The notes under the pieces are model-generated. The model saw only the letters and a program-made list of their open reading frames with translations. It was not told where the DNA came from and made no database searches. A DNA stretch of 64,000 bases. Origin: an uncultured Candidatus Saccharibacteria bacterium. GTDB lineage: Bacteria > Patescibacteriota > Minisyncoccia > Phycocordibacterales > UBA9973. The translations under genes and the position numbers were made by a program. Location: contig CAZVHB010000001.1 of assembly GCA_964626965.1 (NCBI GenBank), forward strand, positions 1,818-65,817, read 5' to 3'. Below are positions 3,831 through 48,394 of this stretch, in pieces. Within the stretch, counting starts at the first letter, position 1; every line of letters begins with the position of its first letter.

Positions 3831-4781
3831 ATGAAAAAGATAATTCTTTTGGCGATAATCGCCTCGACCATTTTTTCTTTACCAACGTTTGCTCAGCAAA
3901 CGTACATCGCAACTGATGTAAACGGTAAGCGGATTGATTCTGTAATTTATTACAGCTTAGAATCAGCGCAAGCTGCGGCTAATGCGTATGACTTACGTCA
4001 AAAACAACAATTAACACAAACGTTCACGGCGAAAGACGAGAACGGAAATGTAATTGGAGTGTATGCTTCTCAGCTAGAGGCACAAAATGCTACTAACGCA
4101 GATTACATGAGGAGGCATCCAGCTCCTGCACAAGGTAACACAAATCAACAGCCTGCTGAAGATCCATATCTTACTCGAAAAAAAGCTCTTGATTTACAAA
4201 AGGATCAAGAAACAGTTAAAGCTTTGAAGTTGCAAAACGCTAATTCCAAAATCACTATTTTAAACAATGGTATTACTACTGTTGGAAATGGTGTGGGGAC
4301 TGGTGTTTACATTGGTCAACAGCTTGGTCTGATTGGAAATGGTGGTGGACGAGCACAGTTCAATCGCTGTCGCTATTGCAATGTTACCTATGTTGGCACT
4401 CAGCATGTATGTAATCAAAGTGGTGTTGGTGGTGTAATGCCTCCTAACAGTGGTTACAATGGTAGTTATTGCCAAGGGTGTCGCCAGACTTATTATGGCG
4501 GTAATCATTCTTGTGGTACTACTGGTTTCGGCCAGCAAACACAAGGTTGCTTTTGTACTTATTATCAAGGGCAAGGATATGTTCCTAACCAATATGGTAC
4601 GGGTACATGGTGTACTTGGAGAATGAATAGTAATGGCTCCGGGTATGGTTGGTTTCCATCAACCCAACAAGGTGGTTGTGGTAATCAATATGGTGACGGG
4701 ATGTTTCATACACCAATCATCAATCGCTTTGATAATGGAGGACCTGTTCCAGGTGCTCAATATGGTGTTCGCATTTATTAA
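3831..4781 (+). CDS. Secreted Cys/Gly/Tyr-rich protein (signal peptide ...TFAQQ)
   Basis: N-terminal signal peptide. C-terminal half has 16 Cys in CxxC/CxC-like spacing and G/Y/N-rich low complexity. Confidence 0.7.
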   Translation: MKKIILLAIIASTIFSLPTFAQQTYIATDVNGKRIDSVIYYSLESAQAAANAYDLRQKQQLTQTFTAKDENGNVIGVYASQLEAQNATNADYMRRHPAPAQGNTNQQPAEDPYLTRKKALDLQKDQETVKALKLQNANSKITILNNGITTVGNGVGTGVYIGQQLGLIGNGGGRAQFNRCRYCNVTYVGTQHVCNQSGVGGVMPPNSGYNGSYCQGCRQTYYGGNHSCGTTGFGQQTQGCFCTYYQGQGYVPNQYGTGTWCTWRMNSNGSGYGWFPSTQQGGCGNQYGDGMFHTPIINRFDNGGPVPGAQYGVRIY

Positions 4782-6049: not shown

Positions 6050-6077
6050 TTGACATAAATTTATAAATTGATATAAT
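6050..6077 (+). promoter_or_regulatory. Sigma70 promoter TTGACA-16-TATAAT, 8 nt upstream of the ATG at 6086 (leaderless or near-leaderless)
   Basis: Exact consensus hexamers. Confidence 0.7.
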
Positions 6078-6085
6078 AGCTTTAT

Positions 6086-8959
6086 ATGAAAAACATATTT
6101 ACAAAAATTAGTTCAAAAGCATACATAGGCGCACTTGCGCTCTTTTTGGCTTTTGGTCTTACAAGCCAAGCATATGCTGGCGCAGTTGCATGGGCAGGTC
6201 CAACAGAGTTTGGTACTATCGCTAATGTTACCGGAACATCAATCGTCGAAAGTAGTCCTTATACACCATTTTCTTATGCAAATACATCTTCTGCGTCTGC
6301 AGGTGATAAAGTTGCGGTTATTGTGTATTTCCACAATAAAGGAAATGCTGCATCTCCAAACACATATATTAAAGTAAATAAATCAACCAACGGCTCTGCC
6401 TCTACGTTTACATTTACTGGTTCTGTGTCTGGTGGTGGAGCTTCAAAATCTGGCTCAACAACAGTGAACCTTTCTTCTAGTCAAACACTCACGTATATCC
6501 CAGGATCACTACGCGTTAGTAAAGACCGTGCTCCAGTAGGGTACTCAGTATCAAATGATACAGACGTTTTTTCAGGTGCTGGTCTTGATATTGGGATGGT
6601 ACAAGGAATGGATACTTGCGGAACAGACGCACTCTGTCACCAAGGTTCTGTTGCACTTGGATTTCAAGTAAGTTCAACTTCTACAACTCATCTTTGTTCA
6701 AATGGACAAGATGATGACGGAGATCTCCTTATCGATATGAATGACCCAGGATGTACTGACCCAACTGATGATAATGAATACAATCTTGTATCACCACTTG
6801 TGTGTACAATCAATTCTTTCACTGGATCACCTTTGACTGTTGCTTCTGGTGGATATACAAATCTTTCATGGAACACAACAAACTGTACAACTGTTACTGT
6901 TGATGGATTTACCTATCCTGTCGATGGTAGTGGAAATTTTGGCCCACTCTTTGTCGGTAAAACATACTATCTTGCTGCTTCAAACGGAACTAGTACTGAC
7001 TCAGAAACAGTCTATGTTGGTGTAAATACTGTTGCTTCAGCATGTACAATTGATACATACTATGCATCACCAACTACAGTAACTTCAGGTGGATATACAA
7101 CAATTTATTGGAATACATCAAACTGTACGACTGTTACTATCGATGGTATGCCTCAGTCAGTAGACGGAAGTAATTCTTTTGGTCCGATCTATTCTGGTAA
7201 AACATACAACATTGTTGCGTCAAACAGTACAAGTACTGATTCAGATAGTCTCTACGTTGGAACAAATTCTGTAAATAACTGTACGATTGATAATTTCTAC
7301 GCATCACCATCTACTGTTTCTTCAGGGAACTACACAACACTTCATTGGAATACATCAAACTGTGACCAAGTGACGATCGACGGTATTACTTATTATTCTG
7401 TTGATGGAAGTGGATCTTTTGGACCACTCTACAGTGGACGAAGTTACCAAATCCAAGCATGGAAAACTAGTCAATCTCCAGTTTCTCAAACAACATACGT
7501 ATCAGTTGATACATACTCTTCAAACAACTGTAGTATCGATACTTTTTATGCATCACCTACAACAGTAATCTCAGGTAGTACTACTCAACTCTTTTGGAAT
7601 ACATCAAACTGCGACCAGGTTACTGTTGATGGTATTAATTATGGTGTTGATGGAAGTGGTTATTTCGGCCCACTCTATAGTGGACGAAGTTACGTGCTCA
7701 ATGCGTGGAAAAATGGTCAAACTGTACGTACACAAACAGTCTATGTTGGTGTAAATTCTGTCAATAATTCATCTTACGCATGTAATGATGGGTATGATAA
7801 TGATGGTGACGGACGTGTAGACTATCCAAATGACGCTGGTTGTTACTCATCAACTGATAACGATGAATACAACTATGTTGCACCAGCTGTTTTGAATACT
7901 GTTGTGACAACACTCAACCCAAGTAATCTTACATCTTCTTCTGCACGTTTGAATGGATCTATCTTCAATGGTGGAAATAATGCAACTCAGTTTTATTTTG
8001 AATGGGGAACAGATACAAATTCTCTTCCAAACAAAACAAATTCACAAACAACCTTTTCAGATAATTCAGTAACGTACTTTGATACTGCATACAATCTTTC
8101 AACTGGTGTTACCTATTACTATCGTGCAGTTGCACAAAAAAGTAATGGAGTGGTCATCCGTGGCGATATTAGACAATTTCGCTTGATTGAAGTGGTAACT
8201 CCTGTATTTACAAATACAGTGACACGAGTAGTTACGGTGCCAGCTCCAGTAGTACAAGAGAGAGGAGTAGTTGTCGGACTTGGAACAAATCTTGTACAGC
8301 TTCGATATATTACGAATGATATCCTTAGTACAAATACTGGTGGTTTTGGAATCACTCAAACTGGTATCAATCAAAATGTAAACAATGGTGTACAAAATGT
8401 CTGTGTTGATGACAGTATTAAATTTGTTGTTGAATACAGAAATATCTCAACAATTACACTTAATAATGCAATCCTTCATATTGATATTCCAAAAGATGTC
8501 GACTTCCGAAGTTCATCAGCCGGAGTATTTAATAAAGCAGACAATACTATCACTATCAATGTAGGAACACTCACTCCTGGTCAATCAGGTCAAGTATCTT
8601 TCGACGGAATTGTTATGAGTAGTGCAGCAAATCGAGATCTTCTCGTTGTCCCAGCAACACTCTCATTTGAAAATCCAAACAATGGTGCTCGAGAAACAGC
8701 GATTGCGTACGGACTCGCAACGACTCAAAACTGTATTAAAAATGGGGGACTTGCCGGATTCGCATTCGGTTCAGGATTCTTTCCAGATACACTCTTTGGA
8801 TGGTTGCTCTTAATTCTCGTACTCCTCGCTCTGATTTACCTTCTTCGAAGAATGTTTATGGTGTATGGAATCGGACCAAGATCAAAGACCACAACCACAA
8901 CGACTACACAAAGACATTACGAGGATATGGATATTCCAACAGCGCCATACCAACACTAA
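6086..8959 (+). CDS. Large cell-surface protein (957 aa): signal peptide, 4 tandem ~80-aa repeats flanked by Asp-rich CxxGxDxDGDG motifs, a fibronectin-III-like domain, a DUF11-like domain and a C-terminal TM anchor
   Basis: Repeats CTIDxFYASPxTVxSGxYTxLxWNTSNC..VT.DG..Y.VDGSG.FGP.YSG. Also NATQFYFEWGTD (fn3-like), TPGQSGQVSFDGIV (DUF11-like) and a C-terminal GSGFFPDTLFGWLLLILVLLALIYLLRR. Confidence 0.75.
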   Translation: MKNIFTKISSKAYIGALALFLAFGLTSQAYAGAVAWAGPTEFGTIANVTGTSIVESSPYTPFSYANTSSASAGDKVAVIVYFHNKGNAASPNTYIKVNKSTNGSASTFTFTGSVSGGGASKSGSTTVNLSSSQTLTYIPGSLRVSKDRAPVGYSVSNDTDVFSGAGLDIGMVQGMDTCGTDALCHQGSVALGFQVSSTSTTHLCSNGQDDDGDLLIDMNDPGCTDPTDDNEYNLVSPLVCTINSFTGSPLTVASGGYTNLSWNTTNCTTVTVDGFTYPVDGSGNFGPLFVGKTYYLAASNGTSTDSETVYVGVNTVASACTIDTYYASPTTVTSGGYTTIYWNTSNCTTVTIDGMPQSVDGSNSFGPIYSGKTYNIVASNSTSTDSDSLYVGTNSVNNCTIDNFYASPSTVSSGNYTTLHWNTSNCDQVTIDGITYYSVDGSGSFGPLYSGRSYQIQAWKTSQSPVSQTTYVSVDTYSSNNCSIDTFYASPTTVISGSTTQLFWNTSNCDQVTVDGINYGVDGSGYFGPLYSGRSYVLNAWKNGQTVRTQTVYVGVNSVNNSSYACNDGYDNDGDGRVDYPNDAGCYSSTDNDEYNYVAPAVLNTVVTTLNPSNLTSSSARLNGSIFNGGNNATQFYFEWGTDTNSLPNKTNSQTTFSDNSVTYFDTAYNLSTGVTYYYRAVAQKSNGVVIRGDIRQFRLIEVVTPVFTNTVTRVVTVPAPVVQERGVVVGLGTNLVQLRYITNDILSTNTGGFGITQTGINQNVNNGVQNVCVDDSIKFVVEYRNISTITLNNAILHIDIPKDVDFRSSSAGVFNKADNTITINVGTLTPGQSGQVSFDGIVMSSAANRDLLVVPATLSFENPNNGARETAIAYGLATTQNCIKNGGLAGFAFGSGFFPDTLFGWLLLILVLLALIYLLRRMFMVYGIGPRSKTTTTTTTQRHYEDMDIPTAPYQH
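6803..7774 (+). repeat. Four tandem ~240-bp (79-83 aa) intragenic repeats
   Basis: Each repeat starts with a TGT (Cys) codon, at 6803, 7043, 7280 and 7529. Confidence 0.8.
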
Positions 8960-37194: not shown

Positions 37195-37270
37195 GAGTAT
37201 ATATTTTTAAGTGAACAATTTTATTTATTCCAAGTATACCATCTCAGGATTGAAGTGATATAATGGGTGT

Positions 37271-38152
37271 ATGCAGAATAATATACAAAATAACCTCCAG
37301 ATTCAGCAGTCAAAAAATATCCGCCGGACGTGGACACTTATCGGTTTTGTTGGGTTTCTTATTATCGGTCTTGGTTGGCTTTTTTCATACAAAACAGGGA
37401 ACCCATCTATGGTGACCTATTTCGCAGTCGGTGCAATCGTGCTTAATCTTATTTCATATTGGTTCTCTGATAAAATCGCACTGTCTATGAATGGCGCAAA
37501 AGAAGCAAATCCTACTGACTTTCCAAAATTACATGAGATAGTCGAACGTGTTGCACAAAAAACAGGCCTACCAAAACCTCGTGTATACGTGATACAAGAC
37601 AGTGCACCGAACGCCTTTGCGACAGGAAGAAATAAAGAAAATGCTGCTATTGCGTGTACTACTGGGATTCTTGCACTTCTTTCTGATGAAGAGCTCGAAG
37701 GAGTGCTCTGTCATGAATTTGCTCATATTCAAAATAGAGATATTTTGATCAATACGATTGTTGTTGTACTTGTTGGATTACTCTCTATTATCGCTCAAAT
37801 GTTTATGTTCTCGGGGCAGTCACGTGATCGGGATAATAACTCTGGACTTCTTGTGATGCTCGGTTTTCTCTTTGCGTTTCTTTCTCCTATTATCGGGCAA
37901 CTCATTCAGCTTGCAATATCACGCAAGCGTGAATTTCTCGCTGATGCAACAGGCGCGCTGACTCACGGACATCCGGAACATCTCGCCCGAGCGCTTGAGA
38001 AAATTTCAGGTTCTGCACAGCCGATGGTACATGCAAACACTGCAACAGCACATATGTTTATTGCAAATCCATTTGGAAACATCGGTGCACTCTTTGCTAC
38101 TCATCCTCCAGTAAAAGAGAGAGTCAGGGCACTTTTGGGTAATACAAAATAA
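37271..38152 (+). CDS. htpX: M48-family zinc metalloprotease HtpX
   Basis: HEFAHIQNRD (HExxH); TM helices. TATAAT-N6-ATG. Confidence 0.85.
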   Translation: MQNNIQNNLQIQQSKNIRRTWTLIGFVGFLIIGLGWLFSYKTGNPSMVTYFAVGAIVLNLISYWFSDKIALSMNGAKEANPTDFPKLHEIVERVAQKTGLPKPRVYVIQDSAPNAFATGRNKENAAIACTTGILALLSDEELEGVLCHEFAHIQNRDILINTIVVVLVGLLSIIAQMFMFSGQSRDRDNNSGLLVMLGFLFAFLSPIIGQLIQLAISRKREFLADATGALTHGHPEHLARALEKISGSAQPMVHANTATAHMFIANPFGNIGALFATHPPVKERVRALLGNTK

Positions 38153-38637: not shown

Positions 38638-39192
38638 ATGTATGAAATTATCCACACAAAAGCAATTGTACTTCTCGATCGAGTAGAAAAAGAGTACAAT
38701 AAAATATTTTTTTTGTTTACCGAAGAACTCGGGCTTGTTTCGGTGCATGCAGTTTCTATTTTGAAACCAGGGGCGAAACTTGTTTCTATGTTGCAACCAC
38801 ATAGTATTATTTCTTGTGATATTGTCGTCGGGAAACACTCAAAGAGAATTACGACGATTGTTGAGAAACATCCATACGAGCATATTTTTTTAAATACACA
38901 CAAGAAAAATAGTTTTCTCTCTATTTTTAATTTTATTATTGCGATGGTTCCGCGAAATATTCCAGTGAAAGACGTGTACGCGCTCTTTTCTGATTTTATT
39001 TATACGCTTGAAACTGACACTCACACAGAGGAAAGCGTACAACAACTCGAAGTTCGTACACTCTATAAAATATTGGCTTCACTTGGGTATATCGACACAG
39101 AGTACCATTATATGTTTGATACAATTGAGACAGATGATTATCCAAAAATGTACGATACGGTAAATAAGGTATTGAAAGAAATACATACATAG
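38638..39192 (+). CDS. Possible DNA repair protein RecO (short form)
   Basis: N-terminal OB-like AIVLLDRVEKEYNKIFFLFTEELGLVSVHA... and C-terminal LEVRTLYKILASLGY. This rests on weak similarity only. Confidence 0.35.
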   Translation: MYEIIHTKAIVLLDRVEKEYNKIFFLFTEELGLVSVHAVSILKPGAKLVSMLQPHSIISCDIVVGKHSKRITTIVEKHPYEHIFLNTHKKNSFLSIFNFIIAMVPRNIPVKDVYALFSDFIYTLETDTHTEESVQQLEVRTLYKILASLGYIDTEYHYMFDTIETDDYPKMYDTVNKVLKEIHT

Positions 39193-42724: not shown

Positions 42725-43993
42725 ATGAAATACACTCAAAAAAAACTACCCAACGGTATTCGCGTCATTTTTCACCCAATGCAAAATACTGAAACCGTAA
42801 CAGTTATGACACTTGTTGAAACTGGTTCAAAATACGAGACAAGAAAACAAAATGGACTCTCTCATTTTCTTGAGCATATGTGTTTCAAGGGGACAACAAA
42901 GCGTCCAAGTAGCTTTCTTATCTCAAAAGAACTCGATGAAATAGGTGCTCAGTACAATGCTTTTACCTCACACGAATATACTGGCTACTACGCAAAATCC
43001 GCATCAAATCACTTTGAACGTATTTTTGATGTCGTTTCTGATATTTACCTCAATCCACTTTTTAAGCAAGAAGAAATAGATAAAGAAAAAGGAGTGATCA
43101 TTGAAGAAATAAATATGTATCAGGATGACCCTAAGCGACACGTCTTTGAAGTTTTTATGCGGGCACTGTATGGTGATCAGCCAGCTGGGTGGTCTATCAC
43201 TGGAAGTAAAGAAAATGTGAGTAGTATGAAACATCGTGACTTTGTGCAGTATCACGATACACACTATATTCCTGAAAAGACATTACTGGTTATTAGTGGT
43301 AACTTTGATACAAAACATGCGGACATGCTTATCAAAAAAACCTTCACTAGTCTCAAGAATAAGAAGGGGATTCAAAAAAAGAATACTAAAGATAGCCAAA
43401 CAAAACCTGTTGTTATGATTGAAAAGAAAAAAACTGATCAAGTTCACTTCGTGCTTGGTTTTAGGAGTATCAATGTGTACGATGCGGACGCACATATTTT
43501 TGATGTTTTAAATGCAATTCTCTCTGGTGGTTTTTCTTCACGACTTCTGATGAAGCTCCGTGAAGAATTAGGTGCTGCATACTATGTCGGATCTTTTTCT
43601 GATCCATTTACTGATCATGGTTTTTTTGGAATACGCGCAGGTATTACAAAAACAAAAGTACCACTCGTGCTCACTGAAATTGCAAACCTATTGAAAGAAT
43701 TATCTGAAAAAGAAATTGATAACACAGAATTAAAGAAAGCGAAAGAGTATTGTATTGGTGGAATGAAACTTGATTTAGAGACCAGCGATTCGTATGCAAA
43801 TTTTTTAGGAGGGCAAGCAATCGTTCGAAAACCAATTGAGAGCTTGTCTGATATTGAGAAAAAAATAGCACGTGTGACGTCTAAAGGTATTCTGCGTATT
43901 TGTAAAAAAACATTTGTTTTTAAGAAAATGACTATTGCGCTCATAGGTCAAGATGTGAAAGAAAGTGAAGTTTTAAAAGCATTTTCCCTGTAA
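42725..43993 (+). CDS. M16-family (insulinase/pitrilysin-like) zinc peptidase
   Basis: Inverted zinc motif HFLEHMCFKGT (HxxEH). Confidence 0.85.
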   Translation: MKYTQKKLPNGIRVIFHPMQNTETVTVMTLVETGSKYETRKQNGLSHFLEHMCFKGTTKRPSSFLISKELDEIGAQYNAFTSHEYTGYYAKSASNHFERIFDVVSDIYLNPLFKQEEIDKEKGVIIEEINMYQDDPKRHVFEVFMRALYGDQPAGWSITGSKENVSSMKHRDFVQYHDTHYIPEKTLLVISGNFDTKHADMLIKKTFTSLKNKKGIQKKNTKDSQTKPVVMIEKKKTDQVHFVLGFRSINVYDADAHIFDVLNAILSGGFSSRLLMKLREELGAAYYVGSFSDPFTDHGFFGIRAGITKTKVPLVLTEIANLLKELSEKEIDNTELKKAKEYCIGGMKLDLETSDSYANFLGGQAIVRKPIESLSDIEKKIARVTSKGILRICKKTFVFKKMTIALIGQDVKESEVLKAFSL

Positions 43994-44050
43994 GTGTAAT
44001 AAATATCGCATATATTCGTTATATAGTGTATAGTAAAGAAGAAGAACGTT

Positions 44051-44128
44051 ACCACCAAGGTTCATGAGCGACTGCACTCACATAGGCATTTGTGTTGGAG
44101 TCTGCACCCGCTCATGAACCTTGGTGGT
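44051..44128 (+). terminator. Unusually long hairpin (perfect 20-bp stem, 38-nt loop) followed by a T-run; terminator and/or structured RNA
   Basis: accaccaaggttcatgagcg ... cgctcatgaaccttggtggt, then aattttttt. Confidence 0.6.
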
Positions 44129-44401
44129 AATTTTTTTATTTAGAATTTTTATTTTCTAAATAAAAATTTCTCAATAATAAAATATTTTAAAAAAATAAAT
44201 GTATAAAAATATTTTTTTGAAAAAAAACTTTTATAAAAAATAAAAAAAGTTTTCCACAGTTTTTATTTTTTTTTCAAAAAAACTATTTACTTTATTTTTG
44301 TATATACGATAATTAAATTATCAAGTACATTTAGTAGCATTAAAAATATTTTTGCGAAGGTCGGTGTACTTATTTATTACTAATTGCATGCAAACAATTA
44401 T

Positions 44402-44530
44402 ATGGCAGCTAAAAAAGCAAAAAAGAAAGTAGCTAAGAAAGCAGTTAAGAAAACTGTAAAAAAAGTAGCTAAGAAAGCAGTTAAGAAAACTGTAAAGAAA
44501 GCAACAAAGAAGGTAGCGAAGAAAAGATAG
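44402..44530 (+). CDS. 42-aa Lys/Ala-rich basic protein (histone H1-like / Hc-like nucleoid protein). It is not in the ORF track because it is shorter than 60 aa.
   Basis: MAAKKAKKKVAKKAVKKTVKKVAKKAVKKTVKKATKKVAKKR. It contains an internal 36-nt tandem duplication and has its own terminator. The 82-aa minus-strand ORF 44321-44569 is its antisense shadow. Confidence 0.6.
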   Translation: MAAKKAKKKVAKKAVKKTVKKVAKKAVKKTVKKATKKVAKKR

Positions 44531-44552
44531 TTCTTCTACATTCTTCCCACAA

Positions 44553-44587
44553 GCAAAATATCCTCGCAAGAGGATATTTTGCGTTTT
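44553..44587 (+). terminator. Rho-independent terminator
   Basis: caaaatatcctc-gcaa-gaggatattttg followed by cgtttt. Confidence 0.8.
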
Positions 44588-44704
44588 AGGCTGGGGTTGA
44601 GATTATAAAACATACCCGTTCAATAAACGGGTAGGGGAATCTTTTCAAATTTGACAAATCTCTTAATTTAAGTATTATTAGAATTAAATTAAAAAGATAA
44701 TATC

Positions 44705-45337
44705 ATGAAAAGATTAACCCTTGATTCAGTCCTACCTGTTATTTTGAAAGAGCGTAATATTGCTCCGCAACACCTAGCTTCTATCTTAAAAGATGTAGAA
44801 GCATCTTTTGTAAAACACAAAAAGAAAACAGATTTTTTAAAATACTCAGTTTCATGTGTTGCAAATAAATGTTTGAATACTTCACCACTTTTATCAGTAA
44901 AAAAATTTTTTACCGGAGGATATGATGAAAGCTTAGTGACGTTTTTTGCAGGACAGAAACTGAAACCACTTACGAGTGGTTACGGTGGAGTGTGTTTGTA
45001 CAAAATGAAGAAAGGTGTAAGTGGATCACCAAAAGAAGCGTTCTATTCGCTCGGTAAATCTCTCAGTTCTTTGCATCTCCCGCAAAACTTATTGGTGCAG
45101 ATTCTCACTCAAGATAAATTTCTTTCTTTACGACAGAAGATATTTACATCTGGAAAATCATTCCATTGTGTTATGACTAACCAAAATGGACACCACTTTA
45201 CTGAACAAGAACACTGTTATGCTGTGGTGACACTGACATCCAACGAAGACGGCCCACAGATATACATGAATGAATTTGGGTTCAGAACTTCCCTTAAAGG
45301 AGGTTCAAATAACCAAATTTTAGTCATGGAAAAATAA
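44705..45337 (+). CDS. Hypothetical protein
   Basis: ORF between two terminators. No recognisable domain. Confidence 0.5.
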   Translation: MKRLTLDSVLPVILKERNIAPQHLASILKDVEASFVKHKKKTDFLKYSVSCVANKCLNTSPLLSVKKFFTGGYDESLVTFFAGQKLKPLTSGYGGVCLYKMKKGVSGSPKEAFYSLGKSLSSLHLPQNLLVQILTQDKFLSLRQKIFTSGKSFHCVMTNQNGHHFTEQEHCYAVVTLTSNEDGPQIYMNEFGFRTSLKGGSNNQILVMEK

Positions 45338-45380: not shown

Positions 45381-45437
45381 ATTTCACTTTACTATTGAGA
45401 CATTAATTTTTACTTTATTTTATGCTATAATCGACCT

Positions 45438-47963
45438 ATGAATCTCATGAAAACCATATTTCCGACTTTTTCGGATACGTTTATAAAGAAAGCCGAAAAG
45501 ATAGTAAAAGCTGTAAATACCGAAGAAGTTGAGGTGGTGAAACTCGCCGATGCTGATTTTCCAATAAAAACACAAGAACTCAAAGATAAACTTGCATCAG
45601 GTACATCAATTGATGATATTCTTCCATATGCATTTGCGCTTGTTCGTGAGGCTTCAAAACGTACACTTGGGCAACGCCACTATGATGTTCAAATTATTGG
45701 TGGATATGCACTCCACTCTGGTCATATTGCCGAAATGCGTACCGGAGAAGGAAAGACACTCGTTGGAACACTCCCTGTGTATCTCAATGCTCTGACTGGT
45801 AATGGAGTTCATGTTGTCACTGTAAATGATTACCTTGCGCGTCGTGACGCTGTGTGGATGGGTCAAGTGTATGCATTCCTCGGTCTTACTATCGGTATTA
45901 TTAATTCTCAAAACGTCTCATATCAGTATGATCCAAAACATACAGAACAAGATGAGAATCGCGACGATGTTGGGTCATTTAAGGTAGTTTATGATTTTTT
46001 ACGTCCGACTACGAGAAAAGAAGCATATGCATTAGATATCACTTACGGAACCAATAATGAATTTGGATTTGATTATCTCCGTGACAACCTCGTGGTGTCA
46101 AAAGAGCAACTCTCACAACGGCAACCTTTTTATGCAGTCGTAGATGAAATAGACTCTATTTTGATTGATGAGTCTCGTACCCCGCTTATTATTTCAAATG
46201 AATCAAGTGAATCAGAAAAACTCTATACTGATTTTGCGCGTATTGCAAAACTCCTCATAAAAGATGATGACTATAAGATAGATGAAAAACAGCACACTAT
46301 TGAAATTACTGACCAAGGGATTACCAAAGCAGAACAAATGCTTGGTATAGAAAATATTTATACAGAAAAAGGTATTAAGTATGTCCACCATCTTGAAATT
46401 GCTATCAAAGCTCAATCTCTTTATCATAAAGACAAAGAGTATGTTGTTGCTGACAATGAAATTATTATCGTTGACTCTTTTACAGGACGATTACAACCAG
46501 GACGTCGTTGGTCAGAAGGAATTCATCAAGCAATAGAGGCGAAGGAAGGTGTTGAAATTCAAAAAGAAACAAAAAGTGTCGCGACTATTACATTCCAAAA
46601 CTATTTTAGATTTTATAAAAAGCTCGCTGGTATGACAGGAACCGCAGAAACTTCCAAAGAAGAGTTTTTGAAAGTATATGGCCTTGAAGTTGTGGCTATC
46701 CCAACACACCGACCTGTGAAGCGTATTGACCAAAACGACTTTATTTTTCAAAATGAAAAAGGAAAATTCAAAGCGATTGCCAAGAAAGTAAAAACTCTTC
46801 AAGAGAAAGGACAACCAGTACTTATTGGTACTGTTTCAATTGAGAAAAATGAACTTCTCTCTGCGTACCTTTCAAGTGAAGCTGTCGCGCATACAGTACT
46901 CAATGCAAAGAACCATGAAAAAGAGGGTGCTATTATCGCAGATGCTGGACGGAAAGGTAGTGTGGTAATCGCGACAAACATGGCTGGGCGTGGAGTTGAT
47001 ATTAAACTTGGTGGATCTCATGCAACAGAGACAGAATCAGAAGAGATTAAAACTCTTGGTGGTTTATTTGTGATGGGTACAGAGCGTCATGAAGCACGCC
47101 GTATTGATAATCAGCTTCGAGGACGAGCAGGCCGACAAGGAGATCCAGGAGAAACACAATTTTATGTATCTCTTGAAGATGACCTGATGCGTATTTTCGG
47201 ACCAGATAGAATCAAAGGCATTATGACAAAACTTGGTGTTCCTGAAGATGAACCAATTCAAAATAAGATGATCTCTCGTGGGCTTGAAAGTGCACAGGAA
47301 AAAATTGAAGGATTTCACTTTGACTCTCGAAAACACACACTTGAATACGATTCTGTGATGAACCACCAGCGTGAGACAGTCTATGCTCGCCGTCGTAAAA
47401 TGGTAGAAGCAGAAAAAGCACATATAGAAGAGTATCTTGTAGAATTTATTGGGGCAGATCCGGAATATAGCGAAGAATTACAAAAGCTCATTGATGAGCG
47501 AAAGAAACTCGTCGGCGATGAGGCGTTTATTGAAACATTTCGTCGTGTCGTCCTCCATGTAACTGATATTCTCTGGGTAGAACATTTGGAAACAATGGAT
47601 TATCTGAAGTCTTCAGTGAATCTCCGTGCATATGGCCAGCGTGAGCCACTCATTGAATATAAAAAAGAAGGATTACAGCTTTTTAAAATGATGGAAATTT
47701 CATTCCGTGATCAAGTAATTAACTTCATCAAAACGATGAACACCGAGGCTAGGGTTGCAGGGTCCCAACCGATGGACGATATTAAAGAAAACTATGTTCC
47801 TCATCATGAAGAGATTGGTTCATTTGGAATAGAAGGTACTGCTGAAATGAATACTCACGCTCAACCAATTGAAGCAAAAGATAGTAAGGGGAAAGATATT
47901 GGCCGAAATGATCCTTGTTACTGCGGAAGTGGTAAAAAGTTTAAGAAGTGTCATGGAGTATAA
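45438..47963 (+). CDS. secA: Preprotein translocase ATPase SecA
   Basis: MRTGEGKTLV; DEAD-like motor domains; C-terminal zinc site CYCGSGKKFKKCHG. TGCTATAAT-N6-ATG. Confidence 0.95.
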   Translation: MNLMKTIFPTFSDTFIKKAEKIVKAVNTEEVEVVKLADADFPIKTQELKDKLASGTSIDDILPYAFALVREASKRTLGQRHYDVQIIGGYALHSGHIAEMRTGEGKTLVGTLPVYLNALTGNGVHVVTVNDYLARRDAVWMGQVYAFLGLTIGIINSQNVSYQYDPKHTEQDENRDDVGSFKVVYDFLRPTTRKEAYALDITYGTNNEFGFDYLRDNLVVSKEQLSQRQPFYAVVDEIDSILIDESRTPLIISNESSESEKLYTDFARIAKLLIKDDDYKIDEKQHTIEITDQGITKAEQMLGIENIYTEKGIKYVHHLEIAIKAQSLYHKDKEYVVADNEIIIVDSFTGRLQPGRRWSEGIHQAIEAKEGVEIQKETKSVATITFQNYFRFYKKLAGMTGTAETSKEEFLKVYGLEVVAIPTHRPVKRIDQNDFIFQNEKGKFKAIAKKVKTLQEKGQPVLIGTVSIEKNELLSAYLSSEAVAHTVLNAKNHEKEGAIIADAGRKGSVVIATNMAGRGVDIKLGGSHATETESEEIKTLGGLFVMGTERHEARRIDNQLRGRAGRQGDPGETQFYVSLEDDLMRIFGPDRIKGIMTKLGVPEDEPIQNKMISRGLESAQEKIEGFHFDSRKHTLEYDSVMNHQRETVYARRRKMVEAEKAHIEEYLVEFIGADPEYSEELQKLIDERKKLVGDEAFIETFRRVVLHVTDILWVEHLETMDYLKSSVNLRAYGQREPLIEYKKEGLQLFKMMEISFRDQVINFIKTMNTEARVAGSQPMDDIKENYVPHHEEIGSFGIEGTAEMNTHAQPIEAKDSKGKDIGRNDPCYCGSGKKFKKCHGV

Positions 47964-48045: not shown

Positions 48046-48067
48046 TTGATTATGCTATAATGCATAT

Positions 48068-48394
48068 ATGAATAGTGAAAATGTAAAACTCGTCGTTTTT
48101 GTTCCAATAAGTCATGCAGATATTGTTCGAGAAACGCTGGGAAAAGCTGGAGCAGGAAAAATCGGTAACTACACTTTTTGTTCTTTTTCCGTATCTGGGT
48201 ACGGGCGGTTCTTGCCTGAGCAAGGTGCAACTCCCGCTATTGGGGAGGTCGGTGTATTTGAAAAAGTTGAAGAAGAAAGAATCGAAGTTGTTTGTCCGAC
48301 TGGAATAATAAAAGATGTAATACAGGCCATGAAGGCGGCTCATCCTTATGAAGAAATTGCTTATGAGGTATATCCACTCTTGAATTTTGAATAA
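48068..48394 (+). CDS. Small PII/CutA-like fold protein resembling the insert domain of the Nif3/YqfO family
   Basis: ...GNYTFCSFSVSGYGRFLP..GA.P.IGEVG..E.V.E.RIEVVCP......V..A....HPYEE.AYEVYPL. TGCTATAAT-N6-ATG. Confidence 0.45.
   Translation: MNSENVKLVVFVPISHADIVRETLGKAGAGKIGNYTFCSFSVSGYGRFLPEQGATPAIGEVGVFEKVEEERIEVVCPTGIIKDVIQAMKAAHPYEEIAYEVYPLLNFE

Follow-up and report, generated by a model that had tools for sequence, protein, structure and literature searches.

Lysine-rich repeat proteins that bind nucleic acids or other polyanions have been described from both eukaryotes and bacteria, and they are the comparison for the gene presented here, a small open reading frame (ORF) for a 42-amino-acid (aa) polycation at positions 44402-44530 (+) of a 64,000-nucleotide (nt) stretch of contig CAZVHB010000001.1 (this whole stretch is hereafter called the window). 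The C-terminal domain of eukaryotic H1 and the domain-less H1 of trypanosomatids share with the product of this ORF a Lys/Ala-rich sequence of low complexity and a strong positive charge, and with them the expected behavior of such tails, i.e., disorder when free, helix formation on DNA, charge neutralization and compaction. Among bacterial proteins, chlamydial Hc1 (HctA) and Hc2 (HctB) are likewise lysine-rich, contain short repeats, and bring about nucleoid condensation in very small cell forms; Hc2 binds and condenses DNA, and its repeat number varies between strains (PMC2848022). Bordetella BpH1 and Pseudomonas AlgP (AlgR3) are Ala/Lys repeat proteins binding polyanions, and AlgP binds DNA and polyphosphate granules (PMC9239181). 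A similar nucleic-acid-binding module is found in the Lys/Ala tails of HU (mycobacterial HupB/MDP1, Streptomyces HupS), Ku and Parcubacteria uS19, where such tails are accessory modules, that of uS19 within the same phylum (PMC9297842; PMC3553676).

The window peptide differs from each of these. Compared with H1/H5 (PF00538), it lacks the winged-helix domain of about 75 aa, for which 42 aa would be too short; it has no S/TPKK motif, and it follows a strict four-residue xxKK period in a bacterial family of 32-51 aa with no detectable homology to H1. The family is also distinct from a Lys/Ala/Pro-rich tail with S/TPKK, as its 410 residues consist of K, A, V, T, R and M only, plus one I and one P, with no Ser. 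Hc1 and Hc2 are 125-237 aa long with pentamer repeats, and their models (PF07432, PF07382) match no family member; to our knowledge, their expression is developmentally controlled with no DnaA box involved. The repeat-number polymorphism common to Hc2 and this family (8-11 units, 32-51 aa) is an analogy, not homology. BpH1 and AlgP are much longer, are proteobacterial and have KPAA-type repeats containing Pro, and were set apart without direct sequence comparison. In contrast to the tails of HU, Ku and uS19, the polycation is here a free-standing gene with its own promoter, 5' untranslated region (5'UTR) and terminator. Small genes regulated by DnaA are known from B. subtilis sda and from dnaA autoregulation, and the sda type resembles the present locus in having a TTATCCACA box beside the sigma-70-type promoter of a very small gene, an arrangement that implies initiator control; the differences are that only one box is present here, upstream of the -35 element, and that a polycation is encoded instead of a checkpoint inhibitor. 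We know of no counterpart of such a DnaA-box promoter among H1-like, Hc or AlgP-type proteins. The peptide thus belongs among the bacterial lysine-rich repeat polycations but outside every family compared. A preliminary description of this DNA had likened it to eukaryotic H1 tails, Hc1/Hc2 and BpH1; the Lys/Ala-rich composition bears this out, whereas kinship does not follow, neither Linker_histone nor the Hc1 and HC2 models giving a match, and the H1 likeness is compositional and at most functional.

Translation of 44402-44530 (+), stop codon included, yields MAAKKAKKKVAKKAVKKTVKKVAKKAVKKTVKKATKKVAKKR, exactly the peptide first reported. Of its 42 residues, 21 are Lys and one is Arg (Lys 50%, not the 55% originally given; basic residues 52%), and it contains no Pro, Gly or acidic residue, with a pI of about 11.8, a net charge of about +21 and a GRAVY (grand average of hydropathy) of -0.98. 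Its calculated mass is 4.63 kDa, or about 4.50 kDa once the Met is removed. After the initial Met, it is composed of ten xxKK units of four residues, where x is A, V or T. An internal tandem duplication of 2 x 36 nt, or 2 x 12 aa (VAKKAVKKTVKK each), occupies 44429-44500 (+), as found by Tandem Repeats Finder and by direct comparison. The duplication had been called perfect, which holds for the 12 aa; at the nucleotide level, the copies at 44429-44464 and 44465-44500 are identical at 35 of 36 sites, and the sole difference is a synonymous AAA->AAG change. Tandem Repeats Finder reports the 36-nt period with 2.2 copies and 95% matches, and a 12-nt period across the whole ORF. In all six frames of the window, this is the only stretch with at least 11 Lys in 25 residues.

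The 42-aa product, its 48-aa version with a TTG start, and the product of an antisense ORF discussed below are all absent by exact look-up from a collection of 15 billion proteins, and exact look-up of the three in the contig index also gave no match. Both flanking proteins of the same genome are present in the collection, so the peptide is unannotated there. Together with the coding signatures given below, its absence agrees with the earlier view that annotation had missed a plus-strand gene.

A search for relatives had been proposed with the preliminary description, and it uncovered a family. With the single peptide, phmmer returned nothing at E <= 1e-3, and the family was exposed only by a two-sequence profile at a relaxed threshold. 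This profile matched many small "hypothetical" proteins whose last 32-50 residues read M-A/P-x-KK...(xxKK)n...AAKKTAKR(K/A); whatever precedes this segment is unrelated 5'UTR read through, i.e., the result of over-called starts. A 17-sequence profile searched against 1.84 billion cluster representatives then matched 146 clusters (50% identity) at E <= 1e-3, of which seven reached E <= 1e-10. The hits are mostly 43-110 aa long and match at the K-rich C-terminus, as expected for the same ORF with an over-called start. Contigs were retrieved for nine further family members. The relatives are small (xxKK)n ORFs of 32-51 aa (x = A/V/T), and the Parcubacteria-like lineages that have them number at least 11; every one is either unnamed or "hypothetical," and the N-terminus is usually over-called. 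Their architecture is Met-Ala, 8-11 xxKK units and a short basic end that is often AAKKTAKRK.

The 11 lineages are the window and those represented by loci L002, L119, L120-122, L123, L124/125, L126, L127/128, L129, L131 and L132. A doubtful member, L130 (P0006), was left out of the counts, and the K-rich hits P0041 (thaumarchaeal) and P0011 (Omnitrophica) were excluded for their different architectures. The taxonomy of the metagenomic loci was inferred from gene content and SecA similarity, the SecA of L127, for example, being 61% identical to that of the window. None of the 17 members matches a Pfam model at E <= 1, including Linker_histone, Hc1 and HC2, with the caveat that the bias filters of HMMER penalize low-complexity matches. 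No relative was found in NCBIfam or among PDB sequences, and no description of such a protein was found in the literature.

Two other groups of hits contain similar repeats. P0019, P0021, P0041 and about 40 similar hits of 76-78 aa form a separate, abundant marine family annotated in Candidatus Nitrosopelagicus (Thaumarchaeota), with an N-terminal (TTKKVAKK)n followed by an acidic tail ending in ...EERRAYLEEARSQEASSD, an architecture unlike that of the peptide described here. P0011 and P0012, of Omnitrophica type and about 81 aa, combine a small N-terminal domain (…GFLYFIDKAGDI…) with an (xxKK)n tail, which indicates that the repeat also serves as a C-terminal module elsewhere.

The closest relative lies in L002 (CAZEPT010000014.1), where the flanking M16 peptidase is 59% identical to that of the window and a 47-aa ORF, MAMKKKVAKKVAKKTTKKVVKKAAKKVAKKTTKKVVKKAAKKTAKRK, occupies the same position downstream of it. 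This ORF contains a different internal duplication, perfect over 48 nt (16 aa). The two duplications, of 36 nt in the window and 48 nt in L002, are independent, and they show that slippage adds or removes units in steps that are multiples of 12 nt. The best relatives of the M16 peptidase (43-59% identity) are found in metagenome-assembled genomes (MAGs) of Parcubacteria/Paceibacteria (Nomurabacteria, Paceibacterota, Taylorbacteria, Wolfebacteria and others). Of 80 Parcubacteria loci reached through this peptidase, L002 alone carries the small ORF at a distance of up to 6 kb, so that the association with M16 is a local one; the stable neighbor is secA.

In a stop-anchored, ungapped alignment of the window with L002, 19 aligned Lys positions remain Lys, and the aligned Lys codons that differ do so only by A<->G at the third position (seven cases). 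Not one Lys codon has changed to AAT or AAC, despite the A+T-rich genome, and the x positions are exchanged only among Ala, Val and Thr. Across the eleven lineages, the G+C content of the ORF at third codon positions (GC3) tracks that of the genome, ranging from 0.19-0.26 where the lineage is AT-rich to 0.78-0.83 in lineages of 53-60% GC, whereas GC1 and GC2 are nearly constant and the peptide remains (xxKK)n. AAG is significantly enriched relative to flanking genes in six lineages (P down to 3e-6), which holds A-runs to at most 8 nt. A GGAGG Shine-Dalgarno sequence precedes the ATG by 5-8 nt in L119 and L129, and the start ATG-GCA is found in 7 of 8 lineages compared; the window and L002 share this start. 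The gene is under purifying selection, and we regard it as very probably a real, translated plus-strand gene on these codon-level patterns.

Constraint appears to extend further. Between L120 and L121, the small ORF shows 0 differences in 138 nt (L120 4094-4231, L121 3676-3813) and the box-to-ATG region 3 in 168, whereas secA shows 70 in 1500, almost all synonymous. This comparison argues that the synonymous sites of the small gene are constrained as well, and the whole unit beyond the amino-acid level; such added constraint would fit very high expression or a function at the RNA level.

The opposite strand holds an 82-aa ORF with a TTG start and FLSYF repeats (44321-44569, -), which had been noted earlier and read as a shadow of the Lys-rich frame. 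An alternative is that it is the gene, or that the locus produces a non-coding RNA with an A-rich repeat. In favor of this, neither the window nor L002 has its antisense frame interrupted, conservation between these two is no lower in the 5'UTR and 3'UTR than in the ORF, and L120 and L121 have no synonymous differences. However, the reverse complement of RYN RYN AAR AAR is necessarily stop-free in two of three frames, so that an open antisense frame is mechanical. A 2-nt indel after the stop codon shifts the antisense frame across the repeat between the window and L002, giving FLSYF... in the former and FLAAFLTTFL... in the latter, and an antisense membrane protein was rejected since its frame is not conserved. 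A consensus scan found no minus-strand promoter-like site upstream of the antisense ORF, and just upstream of it lies a minus-strand terminator-like hairpin (44613-44633, TACCCGTTTATTGAACGGGTA, followed by a T-rich tail). A non-coding RNA finds no Rfam match even at E <= 10, and the codon-position pattern, the tracking of GC3 and the Shine-Dalgarno sites all favor the plus strand, in the kind of codon-usage and strand comparison suggested with the preliminary description. Either form of this alternative is hardly credible to us, and the antisense ORF is best read, from its sequence, as a non-functional shadow. The hairpin at 44613-44633 (-) lies between the small gene and the next, 210-aa ORF, with no obvious minus-strand gene to terminate.

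AlphaFold, run with the family alignment, draws residues 2-41 as a single uninterrupted helix with a mean pLDDT (predicted local distance difference test) of 86, and the product is accordingly predicted to be one continuous alpha-helix of 40 residues. The hydrophobic moment is maximal at 90 degrees per residue, not at 100 degrees, which means that the Lys stripe slowly winds round the helix without forming a stable amphipathic face, and this counts against a membrane-active peptide. No hydrophobic segment, signal peptide or known arrest motif was found in the peptide. These properties bear on whether it could be exported, as a leaderless bacteriocin-like or membrane- or host-active peptide that an episymbiotic cell directs against hosts or competitors. 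It is short, strongly cationic, predicted to be helical and leaderless, and bacteria of the candidate phyla radiation (CPR) live attached to host cells (PMC11665869). Against export stand the very low hydrophobicity (GRAVY -0.98; Leu, Ile, Phe and Trp are all absent), the winding of the Lys stripe, the lack of transporter or immunity genes beside the small ORF in all 11 contexts, and the presence of a DnaA box, unexpected for such a gene. We consider an exported peptide very unlikely.

A DnaA-box-like 9-mer, TTTTCCACA within AAAAAGTTTTCCACAG, is located at 44250-44258 (+), 27 nt upstream of the -35 element and with one mismatch to TTATCCACA. The exact sequence AGTTATCCACA (canonical DnaA box TTATCCACA), whose window counterpart is AGTTTTCCACA, is present on the coding strand in 8 of 11 lineages (L002, L120-122, L123, L124/125, L126, L127/128 with 60% GC, L131 and L132). 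In these its orientation is constant, and either 18-19 or 27 nt separate it from the -35 downstream (TTGnnn or TTTACT), after which come a 16-17-nt spacer and a -10 of GATAAT. At each locus checked, it is the only exact box within 5-11 kb. As a background, 880 kb of other Parcubacteria loci contain five exact boxes on both strands together, and the probability of a correctly oriented box within 250 nt in 8 of 11 lineages by chance is about 1e-23. The box travels with the small gene and not with secA, because L126 has the box without secA. No report of DnaA boxes in CPR bacteria was found in the literature.

In the window, a sigma-70-type promoter at 44286-44313 (+) was identified by consensus scan (-35 TTTACT, 16-nt spacer, -10 GATAAT). 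The same hexamers are conserved in L002, and the -10 GATAAT/TAAT is aligned and invariant across eight lineages. Upstream of the promoter, 44130-44285 (+) is an extremely A+T-rich tract with A/T runs, resembling an UP element or curved DNA, and equivalent tracts are found in the AT-rich relatives. Transcription would start near 44320, judging from the promoter position. On this conserved arrangement, control of the promoter by DnaA seems to us rather probable, somewhat better than an even bet.

Other roles for the box were considered. A replication origin (oriC) was rejected: there is a single box, the cumulative GC skew rises monotonically, and the gene orientation is plus to the left and to the right alike. 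A mobile cassette bounded by the box was rejected as well, no second, inverted copy being present. Allowing up to one mismatch, the next boxes in the window are 5 kb and 15 kb away. One exact and two one-mismatch DnaA-box-like 9-mers are found within 700 nt at 38648, 39138 and 39329, around a RecO-like gene and the start of a 650-aa DUF11 gene; this group is probably due to chance and shows no skew change. In L127, a perfect 21-bp palindrome (GCATCACGCGCAAAAATTTTT-CACG-AAAAATTTTTGCGCGTGATGC, 3860-3925) separates murB from the small gene; it immediately precedes the DnaA box and looks like a bidirectional terminator.

The predicted transcript begins with a 5'UTR of about 82 nt (44320-44401, +). 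Its predicted fold contains a hairpin pairing 44323-44331 with 44363-44371, with GGUCG at 44359-44363, and is followed by an unstructured A/U-rich leader that reaches the ATG without a Shine-Dalgarno site. The window and L002 have a 5'UTR 19-mer, TGCGAAGGTCGGTGTACTT, in common without a single difference (19/19). Across lineages, the 5'UTRs are 65-185 nt long, and a 5'-proximal hairpin is predicted in six, with three different stem sequences (AAGUACA/UGUACUU, GAUGAUU/AAUCAUC and UGAUCA/UGAUCA) and with GGUC(G) just 5' of the 3' arm. The differing stems are consistent with covariation, and possible roles of the hairpin are as a stabilizer of the mRNA or as an autoregulatory site. Hairpin loci include window 44323-44371, L120 3990-4050, L123 3860-3890, L124 3960-4030 and L132 660-680; AGTACA also recurs near the predicted transcription start in several lineages. 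A metagenome scan with the 5'UTR 18-mer GCGAAGGTCGGTGTACTT returned 37 loci, none of them followed by a Lys-rich ORF; 36 of the 37 lie in contigs of 50-72% GC, and all were judged chance or unrelated. For 43990-44710, Rfam 15 gave nothing at the gathering score and chance-level matches only at E <= 10.

The lack of a Shine-Dalgarno site before 44402 is no evidence against translation, because such sites are rare in this genome: only 4 of 58 long ORFs in the window have a Shine-Dalgarno-like sequence. Many window genes are preceded by TGnTATAAT, which stops about 7 nt short of the ATG (e.g., 45420-45440, 6070-6088, 37255-37273 and 48050-48070), a pattern that suggests widespread leaderless mRNAs in this genome.

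Downstream of the ORF, a fold consisting of a 13-bp stem with a GCAA loop (44553-44582), then GUUUUA in the RNA, forms an intrinsic terminator at 44553-44590 (+; GUUUUAGG follows the hairpin), as previously claimed. The centroid energy is -20 kcal/mol (z = -4.1), equaled by 0 of 200 shuffles; with just 4 U in its U-tract, the terminator escaped the consensus scan. L002 retains both the 3'UTR and the terminator, in which G-C replaces an A-U pair as a compensatory exchange, and a strong hairpin with a U-tract follows the ORF in most other lineages read; the doubtful member L130 has none. With promoter and terminator both predicted and both conserved in L002, the claim that the gene is its own transcription unit stands.

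The window has a GC content of 33-41%, and nearly all of its genes are on the plus strand. secA (45438-47963, +; identified by Pfam) is the conserved downstream neighbor, found in 8 of 11 lineages (window, L002, L120-122, L123, L124/125, L127/128, L131 and L132), whereas the upstream neighbors vary (M16, an ArsR-type helix-turn-helix gene (HTH_5), SET, MurB and others). In L002, secA directly follows the small ORF; in the window one gene is inserted between them, and in L123 secA is at 1.6 kb after three inserted genes, two of them antisense. L119, L126 and L129 have the small ORF without secA nearby, that of L119 lying near prfA, prmC and rpmE. The linkage to secA exceeds the expectation for unrelated genes.

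Such linkage raises the question of whether the small ORF acts on secA, either as a regulatory ORF or an attenuator ahead of it, where slowly translated Lys or poly-A codons would control read-through into secA, or through a peptide acting together with SecA. Small ORFs regulating sec genes have precedents in secM-secA, mifM-yidC2 and vemP-secDF2, and secA does follow in the 8 lineages even though the upstream neighbors differ. Yet the arrest peptides SecM, MifM and VemP have a signal or membrane segment, an arrest motif and coupling to a sec gene, whereas the present peptide has no signal peptide, hydrophobic segment or known arrest motif. Coupling in cis is disfavored because a strong terminator comes right after the ORF in most lineages read, because secA is served by a separate promoter of leaderless type (in the window and L002, a TATAAT placed 7 nt ahead of its ATG), and because of the inserted genes and the secA-less contexts. 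The enrichment of AAG, furthermore, lowers rather than creates poly-A stalling tracts. A SecM-like monitor and a Lys leader-peptide attenuator were rejected in view of the terminator, the separate secA promoter and the intervening genes, and a functional tie to secA in any form is quite improbable.

Two further features flank the small gene. The gene inserted before secA in the window is an orphan ORF of 210 aa (44705-45337, +), a singleton cluster with no match in Pfam or NCBIfam and absent from L002; a promoter-like site upstream of it (44651-44678; TTGACA, 16 nt, TATTAT) fits 11 of 12 consensus positions. On the other side, just after the M16 gene, is an 80-nt hairpin (window 44050-44129, +; L002 5487-5567) with a 21-bp outer stem (-50 kcal/mol, z = -9.5) followed by T7. 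Its 33-nt apical part, GCGACTGCACTCACATAGGCATTTGTGTTGGAG, is identical in L002, where the flanking protein is only 59% identical, and the outer stem shows about four compensatory double changes. No Rfam match and no other copies in the window or the other loci were found. From this pattern, the hairpin may be a structured small RNA or a protein-binding element, not a plain terminator.

Taken together, the gene may specify a DnaA-controlled nucleoid protein, a polycationic single helix binding nucleic acid. In this model, the sigma-70-type promoter would drive the gene, and DnaA would bind the box centred at roughly -58 to -67; a site so placed, shortly ahead of the -35, is more typical of activation than of occlusion. 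Synthesis would thereby be tied to the activity of DnaA, i.e., to the initiation of replication. The 5'-proximal GGUCG hairpin would probably stabilize or autoregulate the mRNA, translation would initiate independently of a Shine-Dalgarno site on the A/U-rich leader, as for most genes of the genome, with the unit number altered by slippage in 12-nt multiples. The peptide would bind polyanionic nucleic acid of any sequence, the most probable target being chromosomal DNA, fold into a helix when bound, and neutralize about 20 phosphates per molecule, which would help to compact the genome of an ultra-small cell. It would act like the C-terminal tail of H1 or a protamine, not like HU; the domain-less H1 of trypanosomatids, chlamydial Hc2 and the K/A tails of mycobacterial HupB and Ku would also be close to it in mode of action. 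From its sequence, the peptide most likely coats DNA or RNA; that DNA is the main target, rather than RNA, the ribosome or polyphosphate, has in our judgment about an even chance, and the model as a whole is similarly balanced.

Several observations weigh against this model. The evidence is all comparative and predictive, and expression, the peptide and its binding are inferred from it. The window copy of the box has one mismatch, L129 has two TTACCCA(CA) variants, and L119 has none; a single box is weak evidence of regulation, the spacing between box and promoter falls into two classes, and the promoter of the window fits only 9 of 12 consensus positions. AlphaFold readily draws helices for Ala/Lys repeats, and the free peptide is probably disordered. 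The lasting neighborhood of secA is not explained by a nucleoid role, and the absence of synonymous change between L120 and L121 hints at a constraint on RNA or expression that the model does not need. Finally, Parcubacteria-specific Ala/Lys-rich tails of about 25 aa on uS19 (PMC9297842) make RNA or the ribosome a plausible target.

This last point leads to a reading in which the peptide binds RNA, the ribosome or some other polyanion, for example polyphosphate, and is a lineage-specific ribosome-associated protein or an RNA chaperone, i.e., a free-standing A/K tail. Its size and charge are like those of the very small basic ribosomal proteins bTHX, bS22 and eL41, and in Firmicutes the ribosome factor hpf lies upstream of secA. 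A stand-alone unit with a conserved 5'UTR hairpin recalls the autoregulated leaders of ribosomal proteins, nucleotide conservation that includes synonymous sites fits a highly expressed, translation-related gene, and prfA, prmC and rpmE are close by in L119. For polyphosphate, the association of the H1-like AlgP with polyphosphate granules offers a parallel (PMC9239181). Ribosomal families, however, gave no match in Pfam or NCBIfam and no PDB chain, ribosome structures included, a result still compatible with an undescribed ribosomal protein. Close relatives differ freely in how many units they have and in the succession of A, V and T (32-51 aa), which would be unusual for a protein seated in an rRNA pocket, and the conserved cis-element is a DnaA box, pointing to the chromosome cycle. 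L34 (rpmH) is Arg-rich with a conserved N-terminal motif, and a divergent L34 was rejected since this motif is missing from the peptide. A target other than DNA as the explanation of the family is, on balance, doubtful.

Returning to the nucleoid model, a stronger version can be stated: the chromosome of Paceibacteria/Parcubacteria would be packaged largely by a helical polycation of 30-50 residues, whose gene is switched on by DnaA through a single box and autoregulated by the peptide through the GGUCG hairpin. We put this forward as a speculation that is unlikely to hold in full; if true, bacteria would have an equivalent of the histone synthesis that is coupled to replication.

CPR/Patescibacteria account for much of the diversity of bacteria and include some of the smallest cells, and the organization of their DNA and the regulation of their genes are barely known. 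The locus defines a widespread, essentially unannotated small-protein family with an unusually clear regulatory signature, and it illustrates how conserved small genes are lost from MAG annotation through length cut-offs and rules for start codons. If the nucleoid model is right, the gene would be the first predicted member of a DnaA regulon in CPR bacteria of which we are aware. The peptide would then be a candidate for a major chromatin or polyanion-binding protein of these organisms, and, with a peptide of 42 aa and a box of 9 bp, the system would be easily testable.

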